Positions 5,956 through 61,606 of a stretch of 64,000 nucleotides of DNA are shown in pieces. The stretch is from an uncultured Gammaproteobacteria bacterium. GTDB taxonomy: Bacteria; Patescibacteriota; Patescibacteriia; Magasanikbacterales; UBA922. The stretch is taken from positions 28,110 to 92,109 of the forward strand of contig CAYUTO010000001.1 of the NCBI GenBank assembly GCA_964447765.1, read 5' to 3'. Both the position numbers and the translations under genes were made by a program. Numbering within the stretch: position 1 is the first letter of the stretch; each line of letters opens with the position of its first letter. Under the pieces are notes generated by a model. That model did not search any database and was not told where the DNA came from. It saw nothing but the letters and a program-made list of their open reading frames with translations.

Positions 5956-6213
5956 TTAGAAGCCTGCGTCGCTTAGAAACTTCGCAGTCTCTGCGGTATC
6001 GAGAGGTTGGTCGGTGTCCTCCGTGTTGTGTTGGTTGGTTCTCGCGGAAGGTGTAGTCGAGTCTATCTTGAGGATCTTGTTATCCTTGTAGCGGTTCCAG
6101 GACCATTCTTGAGTTAGTACCACGATGAGGATGATGAGGACGAATCCACCTATGATACAAGCAGTCATTGTGATTTCTCTCTCGGATGTGACGGTTAGAG
6201 AGGTGTGCCACAA
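5956..6213 (-). CDS. Hypothetical small single-TM protein, GC-rich cassette B, convergent with cassette A
   Basis: ORF of 85 aa (70 aa from an internal Met) with one hydrophobic helix (ACIIGGFVLIILIVVL) and an acidic tail. A short hairpin AGGCTTagaAGCCT follows the stop. Confidence 0.35.
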   Translation of the reverse strand: MWHTSLTVTSEREITMTACIIGGFVLIILIVVLTQEWSWNRYKDNKILKIDSTTPSARTNQHNTEDTDQPLDTAETAKFLSDAGF

Positions 6214-11466: not shown

Positions 11467-11931
11467 GTGGATACTTTTGATGTTACGGTAAATTACGACC
11501 TTCCGTTCAAGGAGGCAATCTCGGTCGGGAAGTATGATTGGGTGGATCAGAACATTACCTTAAAGAACTTCGCCTGGACTACTGGTTGGACTGCTAAATT
11601 CAAACTCTACCTCGTCAGCTTCGGTTATCCTGTAACGACTGCAAAGATCGAGGAATTGAGCGCTGAATTTCGTCTGGCTGCGCTTCCTGAACTTCTCGCC
11701 TTCGGAGCACAGTTCCCAGACAGGCAACGCGAGTTCGCGATCGTCGCTCTCGGTTCGCCTTGGGCTGTTCCTAATGGCAGTCATCGTGTCACATGTCTCT
11801 ATGGGGACACGGCTGTAAGGAATCTTGGTCTTTACTGGGATGCTCCCGAAAATAAGTGGGAAGGGTGCTGTAAGTTCCTGATGCTACGTAAGTGGGAGTA
11901 CTCTGCACAAAAAGCTTTACAAAGAAGGTGA
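11467..11931 (+). CDS. Hypothetical protein, GC-rich cassette C
   Basis: GTG start after TAGGAGGAG; 154 aa; about 50% GC. A GC-rich hairpin terminator lies at about 11943-11990. Confidence 0.5.
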   Translation: MDTFDVTVNYDLPFKEAISVGKYDWVDQNITLKNFAWTTGWTAKFKLYLVSFGYPVTTAKIEELSAEFRLAALPELLAFGAQFPDRQREFAIVALGSPWAVPNGSHRVTCLYGDTAVRNLGLYWDAPENKWEGCCKFLMLRKWEYSAQKALQRR

Positions 11932-18734: not shown

Positions 18735-18754
18735 GAGTATTAGTAATTTTAAAC

Positions 18755-18784
18755 AAAAAACCTCCCAGATGGGAGGTTTTTTAG
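18755..18784. terminator. Bidirectional terminator AAAACCTCCC-agat-GGGAGGTTTT
   Basis: Perfect 10-bp stem flanked by A/T runs. Confidence 0.7.
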
Positions 18785-19476
18785 AATATTTCGAAATGAA
18801 TATTTTTTGCGTCAGTTCCTCGAGTAGTGAGCATTTCTCGAACTGTTTTTACCATATCAGCATTTCCGCAGAGAAATGCATGGAGATGTGAAGTGTTTGT
18901 AGGTAGGTGTTCGGTCACGCGTCCTCGACTTCCAGTCCACGAGTCTTCGGGGCGTGAAATAGTGGTCGAGTAGCTAAAGTTTGTATGTTTTTTTTGTAGT
19001 TCTTCCAATCGGTCTGCCCAGAAAATATCTTTTTCGTATCGAACTCCAAAAATAAGGTGTAATTTGTTTTTATTATTTTTACTCTCCAGTTCATCTTGGA
19101 TCATTCCCATGATTGGAGCTAATCCTACGCCTGTGGCTATAAAACAGAGATCGCTGTTGCTAGTGTTTACGACAAACCTTCCTGCTGGTCCGCGGAATGA
19201 AATTGTGTCACCTGGGTTTGAAATTTGAAAAAGTTTGGAAGCAATACCGGTATCATAGAGTTTCACGCATAGTTCTAGATACTCGTCTTTTGGAACAGAG
19301 GAAATGGAATATGAACGAAATACTTGTTTTTCACCCTGTGGCGCAATAATTTGGATAAATTGACCAGCCTGAAAATCAAAGTTTTTTGGCTTATTTAAGC
19401 GAATTTGAAGCACATCTTCGGTTAGATATTTCTTTTCTATTAGATTGCTTTGGAATTCATTCATAACGATTGACAA
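18781..19476 (-). CDS. FAD/NAD(P)-binding oxidoreductase, ferredoxin-NADP reductase family
   Basis: FAD-binding RSYSIS motif, GxGxxP-type NAD motif (ATGVGLAP) and C-terminal FLCG. Confidence 0.7.
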   Translation of the reverse strand: MSIVMNEFQSNLIEKKYLTEDVLQIRLNKPKNFDFQAGQFIQIIAPQGEKQVFRSYSISSVPKDEYLELCVKLYDTGIASKLFQISNPGDTISFRGPAGRFVVNTSNSDLCFIATGVGLAPIMGMIQDELESKNNKNKLHLIFGVRYEKDIFWADRLEELQKKHTNFSYSTTISRPEDSWTGSRGRVTEHLPTNTSHLHAFLCGNADMVKTVREMLTTRGTDAKNIHFEIF

Positions 19477-19531
19477 TCGAGATTAATTCGTATATCATAC
19501 TACAAAAGTATGATTTCTGCAATAATACCCT

Positions 19532-21117: not shown

Positions 21118-22527
21118 ATGAGTAATAAACTTCAACCACATTTCACGATTGATCGAACTCTCTACGACGGGGCTAATGTTGATACCTCGAAATTTAAGAC
21201 GGCACCAGGATTGACTGAGCATATTGTTCGAGAAATTTCAGAGCAGAAGAGTGAACCGAGTTGGATGCTTGAGAAACGACTCAAGGCTTTTGAATATTTC
21301 AAACATACAAACCTTCCTACCTGGGGACCAGATTTGTCTGGTCTTAATTTGAACGAGATTATTTATTTTGCGCGTCCAAACACTGGTGAGTCAACCAGTT
21401 GGGATACGGTTCCTGATGATATCAAGAAAACATTTGAAAAATTGGGAATTCCTGAAGCTGAGAGAACTCAACTTGGTGGTGCTGGAGCACAGTATGATAG
21501 TGATGTCGTGTATCATAAAATCAAAGATGATCTGAAAGCTAAGGGAGTGGTATTTGAAAATATGGATGTGGCAGTACAGCAATACCCTGATTTGGTAAAG
21601 GAATATTTCATGACCCAGTGTATTCCCATTAATGATCATAAATTTATCATGTTGCATGCTGCGGTATGGTCTGGGGGTACGTTTATTTATGTTCCAAAAA
21701 ATGTAAAAGTGGATTTGCCTTTGCAAGCATATTTTAGAATGAACGCAGAAAAGGGTGGGCAATTTGAGCACACCCTCATCATTGTCGATGAAGGAGCAGA
21801 ACTTCATTATATCGAAGGATGTTCGGCTCCTCGGTATAATGCTAGTTCGCTACATGCGGGAGGAGTCGAAATTTTTGTAAAAAAAGGTGGACGATGTCGG
21901 TATTCGTCAATTGAGAATTGGTCAAAAAATACGTACAACCTTAATACTAAACGAGCACTGGTGGATGAAGATGCGGTGATTGAATGGGTAAATGGAAACA
22001 TGGGATCAGGAACAACGATGTTGTATCCTTCCTCAGTCCTTCGTGGACGAGGTGCGAGATCAGATAGTTTGGGAGTTGCATTTGCTGGACCTGGTCAGAA
22101 TCAGGATACGGGAGCCAAAGCGATTCATGTAGCTCCTGATACGAAGTCAACGATCAAGGCAAAATCTATTTCAGTAAACGGTGGAATTACGACGTATCGT
22201 GGACTCGTAAAAGTTGCAAAGAGTGCAGAGCGATCAAAAGTGTCAGTTGAGTGTGATGCACTTCTCATTGGGGACGATGCGATATCAAACACTTATCCGT
22301 ACATGAAAATAAATAATAGTACGACTGATATTGCACATGAAGCTCGGGTTGGGAAAATAGGGGATGATGAGATTTTTTATTTACAATCACGAGGACTATC
22401 AGAAGAAGCTGCAATGAATCTGGTAGTTTCAGGATTTATTGAACCAGTTATAAAATCACTTCCACTCGAATATGCACTTGAGCTGAATAAACTGATTGAG
22501 CTTGAGATGGAAGGCAGTGTAGGGTAA
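21118..22527 (+). CDS. sufB: Fe-S cluster assembly protein SufB
   Basis: 469 aa; conserved C-terminal FYLQSRGL motif and the SufB beta-helix region. Confidence 0.85.
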   Translation: MSNKLQPHFTIDRTLYDGANVDTSKFKTAPGLTEHIVREISEQKSEPSWMLEKRLKAFEYFKHTNLPTWGPDLSGLNLNEIIYFARPNTGESTSWDTVPDDIKKTFEKLGIPEAERTQLGGAGAQYDSDVVYHKIKDDLKAKGVVFENMDVAVQQYPDLVKEYFMTQCIPINDHKFIMLHAAVWSGGTFIYVPKNVKVDLPLQAYFRMNAEKGGQFEHTLIIVDEGAELHYIEGCSAPRYNASSLHAGGVEIFVKKGGRCRYSSIENWSKNTYNLNTKRALVDEDAVIEWVNGNMGSGTTMLYPSSVLRGRGARSDSLGVAFAGPGQNQDTGAKAIHVAPDTKSTIKAKSISVNGGITTYRGLVKVAKSAERSKVSVECDALLIGDDAISNTYPYMKINNSTTDIAHEARVGKIGDDEIFYLQSRGLSEEAAMNLVVSGFIEPVIKSLPLEYALELNKLIELEMEGSVG

Positions 22528-22623
22528 TAACTATATGTAACAATTTTTAAAATTAAGAAGCGCTGCGCCAGAGTCGTCGATCCCGAATGGGAGACTTGTC
22601 TGGTGCAGCGCGCATGGGTAGGG

Positions 22624-22902
22624 TCATGAGTCGTTCAGGCCGAGCTCCTTGGTCTTACTGACTCGGTTTATGAACTCGACATCTGAAGCTGGCTTTCGTG
22701 TAACTCGGGCGCAGACGTCGGCTTCAGGCTCACCATAGTATGGTTTTCCGACGATCGTGACCGTGTACACGTCTTTGTCTTCCTTGTTGAAGGAGTTGTG
22801 ATGTAGAACACCACCGAGATTCACGATGTGTTGGTTAAGTGCCGCAACAGCCGATTCTTCGTTCTTGAAGCCTTCGAACGTGATGAGTAGTTTGAACGAC
22901 AT
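22624..22902 (-). CDS. Hypothetical small protein, GC-rich cassette D, inserted between sufB and sufD on the opposite strand
   Basis: 92 aa. Own promoter TTGACT-16 nt-TAGTAT plus AAGGAGAA RBS, and a minus-strand terminator hairpin CGCTGCGCCAGA...TCTGGTGCAGCG at 22560-22615. Confidence 0.5.
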   Translation of the reverse strand: MSFKLLITFEGFKNEESAVAALNQHIVNLGGVLHHNSFNKEDKDVYTVTIVGKPYYGEPEADVCARVTRKPASDVEFINRVSKTKELGLNDS

Positions 22903-22972
22903 GCTATTCTCCTTCGGGCGGTGAAGGTGCCCGATATATCAGATACTAACATTATTTATACAAAAGTCAATT

Positions 22973-24028
22973 ATGAAATCAACTCCCTATACAATTCACT
23001 ATGGTATAGGAATGCTCATGAACTTTGAGCCGCTTCTTTATGATACGCTCAAATTTCAAGTAGGTGCGAGTATGGTCTCGCTTTCCGATTCTGAAGAGGG
23101 GAATAAAAATGTAGTTCAATCAATTTTACAAAATAATGAAAAGCTTTCTTCGGTTGTTAATAATCATCTTACTTTTTTTCCACTATTCAACTTGGTGCAC
23201 ACACAACCAACTGATGAATTTTATTTTACGATTAAAAATACTAATAACTTGACTACGCACAAACTTTTCTTAGATATACAAAATTCTTCTCGAACGCATG
23301 TGGTGATTACTGTGGAAGATGGAGCGAAAGTGACTATTGTAGAATCAATGGTTGGAAATTCATATGTGGGATATGCACTCGATATTGTAGTTGGAAAAGG
23401 GGCTGAGGTTACGTTTGTTGCACATCCGGAAAATATGAGTATGAGAACCGTACTTCGAAATGCATATGTGCAAGAAAATTCTTTGATTAAGTGGTTGGAA
23501 GGAGTTATTGAGGGACAATTGATCCAATCACATATCCGAACCTATTTATATGAACCAGGGAGTCGTGCTGAAGTAAAGGGAATATTCGCACTTTCAGGAA
23601 CTACCGTTGTAGACATGTATCACTCAATGTATCACCTCGCATCTCATACTACGTCTGACATGCTTACCAAAGGAGTTTTGCAAGGTAAGTCACGTGCTAT
23701 GTATCAGGGACTTATTCATATTGATGAGAAGGCTATCGGGTGTACGGGGTATCAGAAACAAGATAGTTTGGTATTATCGGATAGTGCGGAAGTAAATGCG
23801 GTACCAAACCTTGAAATTGAGAATAGTGATGTAAAATGTTCGCATGGAGTAACGACTGCACATATTGATGGTGAAAAATTATTCTATGCGCAGAGTAGGG
23901 GAATTAATGAGAAGGATGCAGCGCAATTATTTGTAGATGGTCATCTCTCTCCTTGTATTGATGTAATTCCAGATGAAACTATGCGAATTGGATTGCAGGA
24001 AAGAATTCATCGAAATCTAGTTGTCTAA
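22973..24028 (+). CDS. sufD: Fe-S cluster assembly protein SufD
   Basis: 351 aa; shares the C-terminal motif (LFYAQSRGI) with SufB. Confidence 0.8.
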   Translation: MKSTPYTIHYGIGMLMNFEPLLYDTLKFQVGASMVSLSDSEEGNKNVVQSILQNNEKLSSVVNNHLTFFPLFNLVHTQPTDEFYFTIKNTNNLTTHKLFLDIQNSSRTHVVITVEDGAKVTIVESMVGNSYVGYALDIVVGKGAEVTFVAHPENMSMRTVLRNAYVQENSLIKWLEGVIEGQLIQSHIRTYLYEPGSRAEVKGIFALSGTTVVDMYHSMYHLASHTTSDMLTKGVLQGKSRAMYQGLIHIDEKAIGCTGYQKQDSLVLSDSAEVNAVPNLEIENSDVKCSHGVTTAHIDGEKLFYAQSRGINEKDAAQLFVDGHLSPCIDVIPDETMRIGLQERIHRNLVV

Positions 24029-37117: not shown

Positions 37118-37384
37118 TTAGTTTGCACCCACCAACAGTGGACTTGGTAGATTGATTGATGCCCAATTTCTCGTGATCTCTGTCACATAAATTTTGTCTT
37201 TTGCATCAATGACACTTTTGAGTTGATTCACGATATCGAGTGAACTTAAGTCTGTTTGTATGAGCCACAGTGATTTCAGTGGTCTACTCCATCGGTTTGC
37301 AGATTTGATCATTTTTATGAGCATCGTATATTCCGCATTGGAGTCTGGTTTGGTAAGGTCGTATGAAATGAGATAGGTTTTCAT
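37118..37384 (-). CDS. Small Cas2/VapD-fold-like protein apparently co-transcribed with lexA (putative SOS-induced endoribonuclease-like protein)
   Basis: 88 aa. The N-terminal strand MKTYLISYDL resembles the Cas2/VapD beta1 with an Asp, followed by helix, strand (SLWLIQTD), helix, strand (KIYVTEI). It starts 12 nt after the lexA stop. A terminator hairpin lies at 37080-37115. Confidence 0.35.
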   Translation of the reverse strand: MKTYLISYDLTKPDSNAEYTMLIKMIKSANRWSRPLKSLWLIQTDLSSLDIVNQLKSVIDAKDKIYVTEITRNWASINLPSPLLVGAN

Positions 37385-37396
37385 AGTAAGGATATT

Positions 37397-37978
37397 TTAT
37401 ATATATTGTCTTACTACACCAGTCACCACTCCCCCAACCTTCAATTCGTATTTTGGAAATATGTCCGGGTATTTTTTGTTTGCTGCACGGAGAAACATTT
37501 TTTTGCCTTTTTGCATGAGGAATTTCAGTGTCCACTCATGATCAATTTCTGCAACTACGACTGCTCCTGGTTTTGCAGTCTTTTTTCTGTTTACGATGAC
37601 CATATCCCCTGACATGATCCCTGCACCTTGCATAGAGTCACCTGAGACCTTTAGAAGGAAGGTGTGTGTGGGCTCGTGAATGAGTAAGTCATTGAGTGAT
37701 ATACAGTCGAGTAGACTTTCCTCAGCGTCGTGTGGAATTCCCGCACGGACTTCTCCTAGTACTCTCACTCCATAGAGTTTTGGAGTAGCAATGAGAAATC
37801 CTTCATCACTCTTTCGTACAACATCATCCTCGATAAACTTTTCAATATAGTCGAATGCTGCTGATTTTGACTTCACCCCAAAGACCTTGGTCATTTCTTC
37901 GTAGGTTGGAAGCCGTTTGTTTTTGTTGTAGTAGGAAAGCAAAGCTTGCATCCTTTTTTTATATAGATCGAGGGGCAT
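37397..37978 (-). CDS. lexA: LexA repressor (S24 peptidase)
   Basis: N-terminal winged HTH, cleavage-site region, and the catalytic Ser in SGDSM. Confidence 0.85.
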   Translation of the reverse strand: MPLDLYKKRMQALLSYYNKNKRLPTYEEMTKVFGVKSKSAAFDYIEKFIEDDVVRKSDEGFLIATPKLYGVRVLGEVRAGIPHDAEESLLDCISLNDLLIHEPTHTFLLKVSGDSMQGAGIMSGDMVIVNRKKTAKPGAVVVAEIDHEWTLKFLMQKGKKMFLRAANKKYPDIFPKYELKVGGVVTGVVRQYI

Positions 37979-48710: not shown

Positions 48711-49130
48711 TCACTTATCTCCTGTCTGCATCTTGACCTTTCGAGCATTGCGCTCTCGAATCTTGATGGTTACTCCGCAGATGATCAGCGTGATCAGAAA
48801 GAAGATGAAGCCTACCAAGTTCACCACGAATTTGATCGGCCACAGGAAAGTAGTGCACACCGCGTAGGTTGTTTCAGGCCACATGTTGTTGGGGTCTATT
48901 CCGGGTGTCCTCTCATATGGGACACTGCTTGAGAACACGTTGTCGTATATCTCCTTGGCACATGTCCAAGGGAATACGACGGCATACAGAAGATACGGAC
49001 CTGTACCCGCATTGTCCCGCGTATGCCAGCTGTCTTTTGCCACTATTGACGTTGTAGTGACGTTCAGTCCGATGAAGAAGTAGAGAGCGCCTGACGCGAT
49101 CACTATAACCAAACCTAACTCGAAAGACAT
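48711..49130 (-). CDS. Hypothetical membrane protein, GC-rich cassette F
   Basis: 139 aa with 2-3 TM helices; about 50% GC; own TTGACA-17/18 nt-TAAGAT promoter at about 49205-49235 (minus strand) and an AAAGGA RBS. Confidence 0.45.
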   Translation of the reverse strand: MSFELGLVIVIASGALYFFIGLNVTTTSIVAKDSWHTRDNAGTGPYLLYAVVFPWTCAKEIYDNVFSSSVPYERTPGIDPNNMWPETTYAVCTTFLWPIKFVVNLVGFIFFLITLIICGVTIKIRERNARKVKMQTGDK

Positions 49131-61252: not shown

Positions 61253-61606
61253 ATGAAGATTCGTATCAAGAGAGATCCTCGGAACCCGGGTGAAGGTGAA
61301 ATCACTGCTGCGTTTCTGCTCGCGCAGAGGCCGGGCAGTTTCTTTCTCCCGTTCGTGATGGAGGACGGCACAGTGATCGAGCTCAGCGTGGACGAGCTCA
61401 GCTACGAGTCAGGTCAGTCTGGTATGTTCATCCTGGGTGGTCGGATCAAGGGCGGTCCCCGGTACGCCGGTTTCTATAACGCCGCGAATCATGGACCTGG
61501 CTACCCTGACACCGAGCAGGTCAACCTCTTCGGCCAGCCGCGCGAGAAGGTGTTCGGACCGATAACGACCGTCGATGAGGGTACGCTCGGCGCTCGCCCG
61601 CGGTAG
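61253..61606 (+). CDS. Hypothetical protein, GC-rich cassette G (about 60% GC)
   Basis: 117-aa Gly/Pro-rich ORF, followed by a perfect 13-bp stem terminator GTTCGCACCCATC...GATGGGTGCGAAC at 61617-61659. Confidence 0.45.
   Translation: MKIRIKRDPRNPGEGEITAAFLLAQRPGSFFLPFVMEDGTVIELSVDELSYESGQSGMFILGGRIKGGPRYAGFYNAANHGPGYPDTEQVNLFGQPREKVFGPITTVDEGTLGARPR

Follow-up and report, generated by a model that had tools for sequence, protein, structure and literature searches.

With a probability of roughly 55%, we read the gap between sufB and sufD in this Magasanikbacteria genome as a long-standing variable slot that holds a moron-like transcription unit, resembles the minimal mobile elements (MMEs) of Neisseria, and has gained, lost, and replaced genes. 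The slot is specific to one Magasanikbacteria clade. Comparison of the locus among relatives established its anatomy, the conservation of a frame of expression signals (promoter/5' untranslated region [UTR] and terminator), a polymorphism in both presence and content, the atypical codon usage of the small genes, and the coding constraint acting on them. The distinctive traits of the slot are the internal expression frame within which the ORF is replaced, the strict head-on orientation of the units, and the occurrence of genes that are Shine-Dalgarno (SD) led and rich in GC3 within a CPR genome that is AT rich and free of SD sequences.

The gap lies in a SUF Fe-S assembly operon on a 290-kb metagenome-assembled contig of a Candidatus Magasanikbacteria (CPR/Parcubacteria) genome, and both flanking genes encode SUFBD_core family proteins. 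The plus-strand gene order is Rrf2 regulator, class-V aminotransferase, sufB, gap, sufD, sufS, sufU (NifU_N), sufC, and FeS_assembly_P. An earlier note on the window (the whole stretch of 64,000 nucleotides analyzed here) had placed the end of sufB at position 22527 and the start of sufD at position 22973, with a GC-rich 92-aa ORF on the opposite strand of the intervening 445 bp (22528 to 22972), and all of this was confirmed from the sequence. That ORF is the only one in the gap; the ORF listing of the 445 bp contains none on the plus strand. The features of the locus are as follows:

21118-22527, plus strand: sufB, 469 aa (TIGR01980, E 7e-204, 678 bits; cutoff, 346)
22528-22547: conserved spacer TAACTATATGTAACA.., directly 3' of the sufB stop; left edge of the conserved frame
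22548-22611, minus strand: intrinsic terminator, with a hairpin at 22560-22611 followed by UUCUUAAUUUU at 22559-22548
22624-22902, minus strand: 92-aa ORF (family A), a small acidic protein, pI 5.9
22909-22914, minus strand: SD sequence AAGGAG, 6 nt upstream of the ORF ATG, as read from the sequence
22915-22933, minus strand: 5'-UTR stem-loop CGGGC-N9-GCCCG, present in the minimum-energy and centroid folds, near the predicted mRNA 5' end
22970-22943, minus strand: promoter, with -35 TTGACT (22970-22965), a 16-nt spacer, and a TG-extended -10 TAGTAT (22948-22943)
22973-24028, plus strand: sufD, 351 aa (SUFBD_core PF01458, E 2e-59, 201 bits)

SufD also matched TIGR01981 (E 1e-60, 205.5 bits), marginally below the model cutoff of 222 bits. 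The gap sequence is identical at every base in two Logan assemblies (L001 and L002) from other sequencing runs; since three independent assemblies agree, it is not an assembly artifact, and a chimera was ruled out. No inverted repeat joining the two ends of the gap (22528 to 22972) was found.

The promoter assigned to the ORF in the earlier note, TTGACT and TAGTAT 16 nt apart, was upheld by its conservation in four relatives. The -35 hexamer is separated from the sufD ATG by 2 nt. Promoter-like sites in the region numbered 3 versus 3.6 in shuffled sequences, and with no excess over the shuffles a single sequence proves nothing about a promoter. Among relatives, the 34-nt promoter block was 100% identical to that of the window in L018, 94% in L010 and L013, and 88% in L017, and the promoter region of L014, read from the sequences, was identical at 28 of 30 positions. 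A second proposal, a CCTTC..GAAGG hairpin (22911 to 22927) overlapping the ribosome-binding site, fared less well: the sequence does contain the pairing, but folding at minimum energy yields the overlapping CGGGC..GCCCG stem instead, with the ribosome-binding site left free, and the proposed pairing is not conserved (60% of cells pair in six relatives, no more than in slid controls). For the CGGGC/GCCCG stem, 90% of cells pair across six loci, with one compensatory change from a G-C to an A-U pair. Coming from six sequences, this conservation is suggestive only, and the stem may be a 5'-terminal stabilizer rather than a trap for the ribosome-binding site.

At the other end of the unit, the terminator hairpin consists of a 13-bp lower stem, an internal loop, and a 3-plus-4-bp upper stem, and its folding energy is -33 kcal/mol (z, -5.7). 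Internal loops were the reason why a pattern scanner missed it. Compensatory changes occur at 7 of 20 pairs among eight loci, and the terminator module is 87 to 89% identical between the window and L010, L013, L017, and L018. As the earlier note had claimed, the T-run is found solely on the minus strand, where UUCUUAAUUUU comes after the hairpin; the sequence beyond the hairpin on the plus strand is GCAUGGGUAGGG, which has no U-tract. Taken together, these elements would make up a self-contained unit with a near-consensus sigma-70-type promoter, a stem-loop, an SD sequence, an ORF, and a one-way terminator ~20 to 35 nt from the sufB stop.

Junctions were collected from 14 distinct lineages by combining sufB cluster members with a sufD scan of GTDB species genomes. 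Five lineages are empty or near-empty (2 to 18 bp), one has a same-strand P-loop gene, and eight have small acidic ORFan genes. The eight occupied lineages carry one or two ORFan genes each, which belong to at least three unrelated families and share the promoter/5'-UTR and terminator modules. The states of the junction are as follows:

Window: one family-A gene, minus strand
L010-13: two family-A paralogs in tandem, separated by a hairpin, minus strand
L014: minus-strand family-A gene, followed by a further gene
L017: A-like gene and an unrelated 84-aa gene, minus strand
L018: unrelated 61-aa gene, minus strand
L005: two units, both with a promoter, stem-loop, SD sequence, and terminator of their own, minus strand
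L006-9: 76-aa gene related to one of the L005 genes, minus strand
L003/L004/L021: same-strand P-loop kinase-like gene with host-like GC3 (0.31); frame absent
L015, L016, L019: empty, 2-nt spacer (TAAttATG or TAAgtATG)
L022: near-empty, 7 nt (TAAATAT), similar to the left frame edge
L020: near-empty, 18 nt (TTGATACAAAAGTCAACT), with 15 nt of the promoter module kept (ATACAAAAGTCAACT)

The earlier note had suggested comparing this junction in related genomes and had assumed that sufB and sufD are adjacent in most bacteria. The latter statement is inaccurate. In Escherichia coli the order is sufABCDSE, and in Bacillus it is sufCDSUB. Adjacency is the ground state for the present lineage only, and since close relatives have sufB and sufD separated by 2 nt, the gap is extra DNA relative to them. 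The spacer at 22528 to 22547 occurs in every occupied locus, and the 7-bp TAAATAT of L022 resembles its start. The 18-bp spacer of L020 could be an ancestral spacer, not a deletion scar. Regardless of the state of the slot, the last 60 nt of sufB (87 to 93% nucleotide identity) and the first 60 nt of sufD (87 to 97%) are conserved across all relatives. When the window was compared with L018, only junction positions 1 to 118 and 413 to 509 could be aligned, that is, the sufB end with the terminator module and the 5'-UTR/promoter module with the sufD start; the ORF region was unalignable. All eight framed cassettes are head-on to the suf operon. Extra genes were also seen around the suf cluster as lineage-specific insertions: (i) an additional same-strand gene separating the cassette terminator from the place where sufB is expected in L014 (4193 to 4459); (ii) an unknown gene of 421 aa that lies between sufC and FeS_assembly_P in L005 (11723 to 12988); and (iii) small GIY-YIG genes adjoining the FeS_assembly_P gene in L006 (11621 to 11935) and L010 (1860 to 2162).

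The 92-aa protein, for which a beta-alpha-beta-beta-alpha fold is predicted, has no credible match to a known family in Pfam, NCBIfam, PHROGs, PADLOC, or PDB sequences, and no significant profile match places it in a known anti-phage defense system (PADLOC). A word-indexed protein search found the protein itself alone, but the ORF is no orphan: when 1.8 billion representatives were scanned exhaustively with HMMER, three true homologues emerged, P0018 (112 aa, E 3e-15), P0019 (78 aa), and P0021 (79 aa), while a further hit, P0020, was a spurious repeat protein. A profile search added a fourth family-A homologue, P0022 (97 aa). All four homologue clusters are encoded on the opposite strand between sufB and sufD in other Magasanikbacteria contigs, the contig of the L014 homologue stopping before it reaches sufB. 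In the searches run, family A and the L006 protein were known from this slot only. Comparison of the cassette proteins by phmmer separated at least three unrelated families, all acidic (pI 4.5 to 5.9). A common homology of families A to E was not upheld, the weak links being solely B-C (E 0.03) and D-E (shared C terminus); families B, C, and D have a loose N-terminal strand-plus-aromatic-helix pattern in common. Short acidic C-terminal tails are frequent in the cassette proteins of the window, L005, L006, L010, L017, and L018 (for example, ..LGLNDS, ..LGFTDS, ..DYGDSD, ..STSDD, ..PADGDNE, and ..LPEDD), and the DNA-level resemblance between the second gene of L017 and the gene of L018 is limited to the acidic-tail 3' end. 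The genes are under coding constraint, as L010 and L013 differ by five nonsynonymous and eight synonymous changes and family-A dN/dS is 0.26 to 0.84 where dS is estimable (0.44 for the window and its L010 homologue). Since unrelated proteins sit in the same frame, our guess is that the cassette protein has an accessory role apart from Fe-S chemistry.

The GC content is 0.495 in the ORF, 0.474 in the gap, and 0.397 in the window, and the gap is ~2.4 standard deviations above the mean, in the top ~2% of same-size windows and not the maximum. The deviation resides in the third codon position: the GC3 of the 92-aa ORF is 0.59 versus 0.28 to 0.36 in nine neighboring genes, and its GC1 and GC2 are ordinary. 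All 10 cassette ORFs have a GC3 of 0.48 to 0.69, and the shift is present across every synonymous class. In the pooled 10 cassette ORFs, the fraction of NNY codons ending in C is 0.65 versus 0.24 in the host (0.83 in the window ORF taken singly), that of NNR codons ending in G is 0.54 versus 0.27, and the GC in fourfold boxes is 0.57 versus 0.35. Translational selection is an unlikely source of the high GC3, because all synonymous classes are shifted and superoxide dismutase (SOD) and ClpB remain at 0.36 to 0.37. GC-biased conversion was likewise rejected, as the flanking arms show no GC increase.

A parallel contrast was seen at the start codons. Of the 57 ORFs in the window that are host-like and at least 120 aa long, none has an SD core (GGAG, GAGG, or AGGA) at positions -18 to -5 of the first ATG, a rate to be compared with 7.8% for random 14-mers, whereas 9 of the 10 cassette ORFs have AGGAG or GGAGG 5 to 8 nt from the start codon. 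The perfect SD sequence of the small ORF is therefore as atypical as its codon usage. According to a published survey, the anti-SD motif is missing from about half of Parcubacteria (PMC9297842), and the lack of SD sequences in the host genes is consistent with this anti-SD loss. The description of the insert as a foreign cassette stands as far as the extra DNA relative to the 2-nt relatives and the foreign-looking codon usage and SD sequence are concerned. The same ORF conserved in relatives with ordinary composition had been named in advance as evidence to the contrary, and only half of this was encountered: the ORF is conserved in place, but its composition is atypical.

Among described systems, the closest parallel is provided by the Neisseria MMEs, such as the one at pheS/pheT (Saunders & Snyder 2002; Snyder et al. 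2007, as described in PMC3082526). As portrayed there, a conserved gene pair of one functional unit flanks differing whole-gene cassettes or nothing, recombinases, terminal repeats, and target duplications are lacking, and exchange is attributed to homologous recombination via the conserved flanks; the type locus pheS/pheT likewise splits a two-subunit gene pair (PMC3082526). In the suf slot, the two conserved flanking genes were found in 13 of the 14 lineages (the L014 contig stops before sufB), the contents comprise at least three small-ORF families, a P-loop gene, and five empty or near-empty states, and the gap holds the 92-aa ORF only, with no recombinase, inverted repeats, or target duplication. 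Conserved arms and states interleaved on the host tree were also seen, and vertical descent with loss could likewise account for these. The suf slot differs from the MMEs in that it has a conserved promoter/5'-UTR and terminator frame inside the flanks, in that the ORF alone was replaced in one comparison (window versus L018), and in that the cassettes are tiny ORFans, always head-on. Furthermore, it was compared between species-level lineages of uncultured CPR bacteria, not between strains of a transformable species, and the exchange of its cassettes is putative. By analogy with the Neisseria MMEs, cassette genes would be exchanged by homologous recombination via the frame and the conserved sufB and sufD ends. 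Only head-on cassettes may be tolerated in the slot, because the terminator of a same-strand unit would sever sufD-sufS-sufU-sufC from the operon promoter.

The unit also resembles phage morons, as defined, for example, for HK97 gene 15 (PMC3594210). It is an independent unit between operon-like genes, its own promoter and terminator being recognized at the sequence and comparative levels, its composition is unlike that of the surrounding genes (GC3 of 0.59 versus 0.28 to 0.36), and it is absent from close relatives. Unlike a moron, however, it belongs to a bacterial chromosome rather than to a phage or prophage genome. It sits within a housekeeping operon, its neighbors are suf, clpB, and further housekeeping genes, and phage genes nearby and viral homologues are absent. 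Integron cassettes and CALINs, the latter being attC clusters that lack an integrase, are likewise short single-ORF units, each followed by an imperfect hairpin and sometimes arranged in tandem. It is nevertheless hardly credible that the suf units are of this type and that their hairpin is an attC site, even though an imperfect 50- to 55-nt hairpin follows each ORF and L005 and L010 have tandem pairs of units. Integron cassettes are normally promoterless and are expressed from a shared Pc promoter, with an intI integrase close by. The suf units have their own promoter and SD sequence (one self-promoted unit in the window, L018, L006, and L014 and two in L005), and their hairpin leads into a T-run, as terminator hairpins do. 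On inspection of eight loci by eye, no R''/R' boxes (RYYYAAC/GTTRRRY) were seen beside the hairpin, the nearest candidate being GTTACAT. No integrase (intI) was seen among the subset of window ORFs examined, and the array does not exceed two units.

Both the distribution and the divergence of the cassettes bear on their history. In a SufD neighbor-joining tree, occupied and empty states are interleaved: L015 (empty) pairs with L018 and L006 pairs with L022 as sister lineages, and both deep clades contain family A. In the comparison of the window with L010, dS and dN were 0.85 and 0.38, respectively, for the cassette (A92 versus A112), 0.40 and 0.065 for sufD, and 0.59 and 0.006 for sufB; the cassette protein evolves much faster than its SufB and SufD neighbors. 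The small-gene unit seems to be at least as old as the split between the window and L010. With 8 lineages occupied, all homologues in the slot, and a cassette dS no lower than that of the flanking suf genes, the unit is not recent. Here the earlier note, which had implied a single acquisition, did not hold, since the slot is occupied in at least eight related lineages and the dS versus L010 is 0.85. A single, recent entry of foreign DNA into this genome would agree with the atypical GC3 and SD site and with the empty sites in relatives, yet it is scarcely conceivable when homologous genes lie in a homologous frame in the sister L010 and in the distant L014 and L017, at a large divergence from the window gene (dS of at least 0.85).

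A more serious competitor, which we regard as possible but less probable than the variable slot, is an ancient resident array with a single origin in the ancestor of the clade, followed by vertical inheritance, tandem duplication, divergence of families A to E so rapid that their kinship can no longer be recognized, and repeated deletion, with no exchange at all. All homologues being in the same slot accords with such a history, as do the tandem paralogs of L010-13, the possible deletion remnants in L020 and L022, and the pattern common to the N termini of B, C, and D together with the weak B-C similarity (E 0.03). The cassette dS of 0.85 is close to the host values of 0.40 to 0.59 and fits vertical descent as well as exchange, and rapid protein evolution (dN of 0.38 versus 0.006 to 0.065 for SufB and SufD) points the same way. 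However, this history requires at least four to five independent losses, and the GC3 of the cassettes (0.5 to 0.7) has not decayed toward the host value of 0.3 although synonymous turnover has been substantial; among the host genes of the window, SOD and ClpB included, none comes near the cassette GC3. There are also small incongruences: the family-A protein of L017 is 29% identical to that of the window and that of the far more distant L014 is 37% identical, and the start of the window 5' UTR (CTGAT) matches L018 and not the sister L010. The undecayed GC3, the ORF-only replacement in L018, and these incongruences favor exchange or an outside pool, whereas the failure to find a donor and the match between cassette and host dS favor vertical descent. 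No donor pool was located by protein searches or in viral collections, nor in a metagenome scan that was itself uninformative, and neither the module patterns and family-A profile in IMG/VR nor tblastn against phages pointed to a viral source. Twelve matches to the AT-rich 19-mer in the viral searches were due to chance, as was the sole metagenome match to the frame, L035, which lies inside an unrelated gene. No further copies of the frame were found in the 64-kb window.

The remaining alternative is that the unit works through its RNA, an antisense or interfering transcript tuning sufD-sufS-sufU-sufC relative to sufB, the ORF being incidental. The head-on unit with its promoter adjoining the sufD start, a frame conserved better than the ORF, and the acceptance of unrelated ORFs in one frame would all suit such a role. 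We nevertheless judge it very improbable, given that all 10 units have an intact ORF, 9 of them with an SD sequence at 5 to 8 nt, that synonymous changes outnumber nonsynonymous ones between close relatives (dN/dS < 1), and that the unit is absent from five lineages.

With regard to the variable slot that we prefer, an effect on the suf operon is conceivable. At empty sites, the sufD ATG lies 2 nt past the sufB stop, a classic coupling arrangement, and at occupied sites the A/T-rich promoter module precedes sufD. No plus-strand promoter for sufD was found within the gap at the scanner threshold, and no SD sequence lies upstream of sufD, as in all host genes examined. These two findings suggest that sufD most likely relies on read-through across the antisense cassette. 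Plus-strand transcription from sufB into sufD would remain possible with a terminator that acts on the minus strand only. Expression of the cassette and read-through from sufB to sufD are both deduced from sequence, and head-on transcription could lower or decouple the expression of sufD-sufS-sufU-sufC. The suf operon itself has a promoter with TTGACA (19470 to 19475), a 17-nt spacer, and TATCAT (19493 to 19498), and a perfect inverted repeat, ATCATACT-N5-AGTATGAT (19494 to 19514), overlaps it as a candidate operator for the adjacent Rrf2-family regulator. An Rrf2 operator common to the suf and cassette promoters was considered and dropped for want of a convincing second half-site.

CPR genomes are tiny and streamlined, and the gain and loss of accessory genes in them are little understood. 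The suf slot offers an alignable series of states (empty, remnant, one gene, two genes, or different genes) with fixed expression signals in a housekeeping operon and is therefore a natural system for studying how cassettes turn over, what becomes of operon coupling once an insertion has occurred, and how ORFan proteins originate. The SD-led, GC3-rich cassettes in an SD-free, AT-rich host provide a concrete test of SD-dependent initiation in this lineage. Should the vertical alternative be true, the puzzle would be what keeps synonymous sites GC-rich in an AT-rich genome. We also entertain, as an unlikely extension, a recombinase-free "expression socket" with fixed signals (a strong promoter, a 5' stem-loop, an SD sequence, and a terminator) into which ORFs are swapped from an unsampled GC-richer pool, such as CPR phages, plasmids, or the host of the symbiont. 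Because the genes of the bacterium are mostly SD-free and some Parcubacteria are anti-SD-free (PMC9297842), such a socket could give its cargo privileged or conditional translation. The cassette proteins, which are small, acidic, and fast evolving, could act in conflicts, for example, as anti-defense or host-interaction factors.

Under this socket reading, other GC-rich ORFan units, together with a second variable slot in relatives, would point to a class spread over the whole genome. Four more stand-alone GC-rich ORFan genes were noted in the window, each with a GC3 between 0.51 and 0.71, no Pfam match, and a promoter of the TTGACA-17-TAxxxT type, and they may belong to the same moron-like class as the suf-gap gene:

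61253-61606, plus strand: ORFan gene followed by a hairpin and T-run terminator
48711-49130, minus strand: ORFan gene followed by a hairpin and T-run terminator
11467-11931, plus strand: ORFan gene with a AGGAGGAG SD sequence, followed by a hairpin and T-run terminator
5956-6213, minus strand: ORFan gene

The second variable slot lies between genes for a 3'-5' exonuclease-like protein and an FNR-like reductase (L003, 3070 to 3405; L005, 3151 to 3552; window, 18735 to 18780). L003 and L005 have different ORFan genes there (GC3 of 0.57 and 0.46, respectively) with their own TTGACA promoters, and all that is present in the window, L006, and L010 is a terminator hairpin common to the three. No tRNA genes (ARAGORN) and no Rfam families at the gathering threshold were found in the 64 kb. 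An 88-aa ORF on the minus strand (37118 to 37384) has a weak Cas2-like Pfam match (E 0.015, below the cutoff) and is located directly 3' of a LexA-like S24 peptidase gene (37397 to 37978, minus strand).
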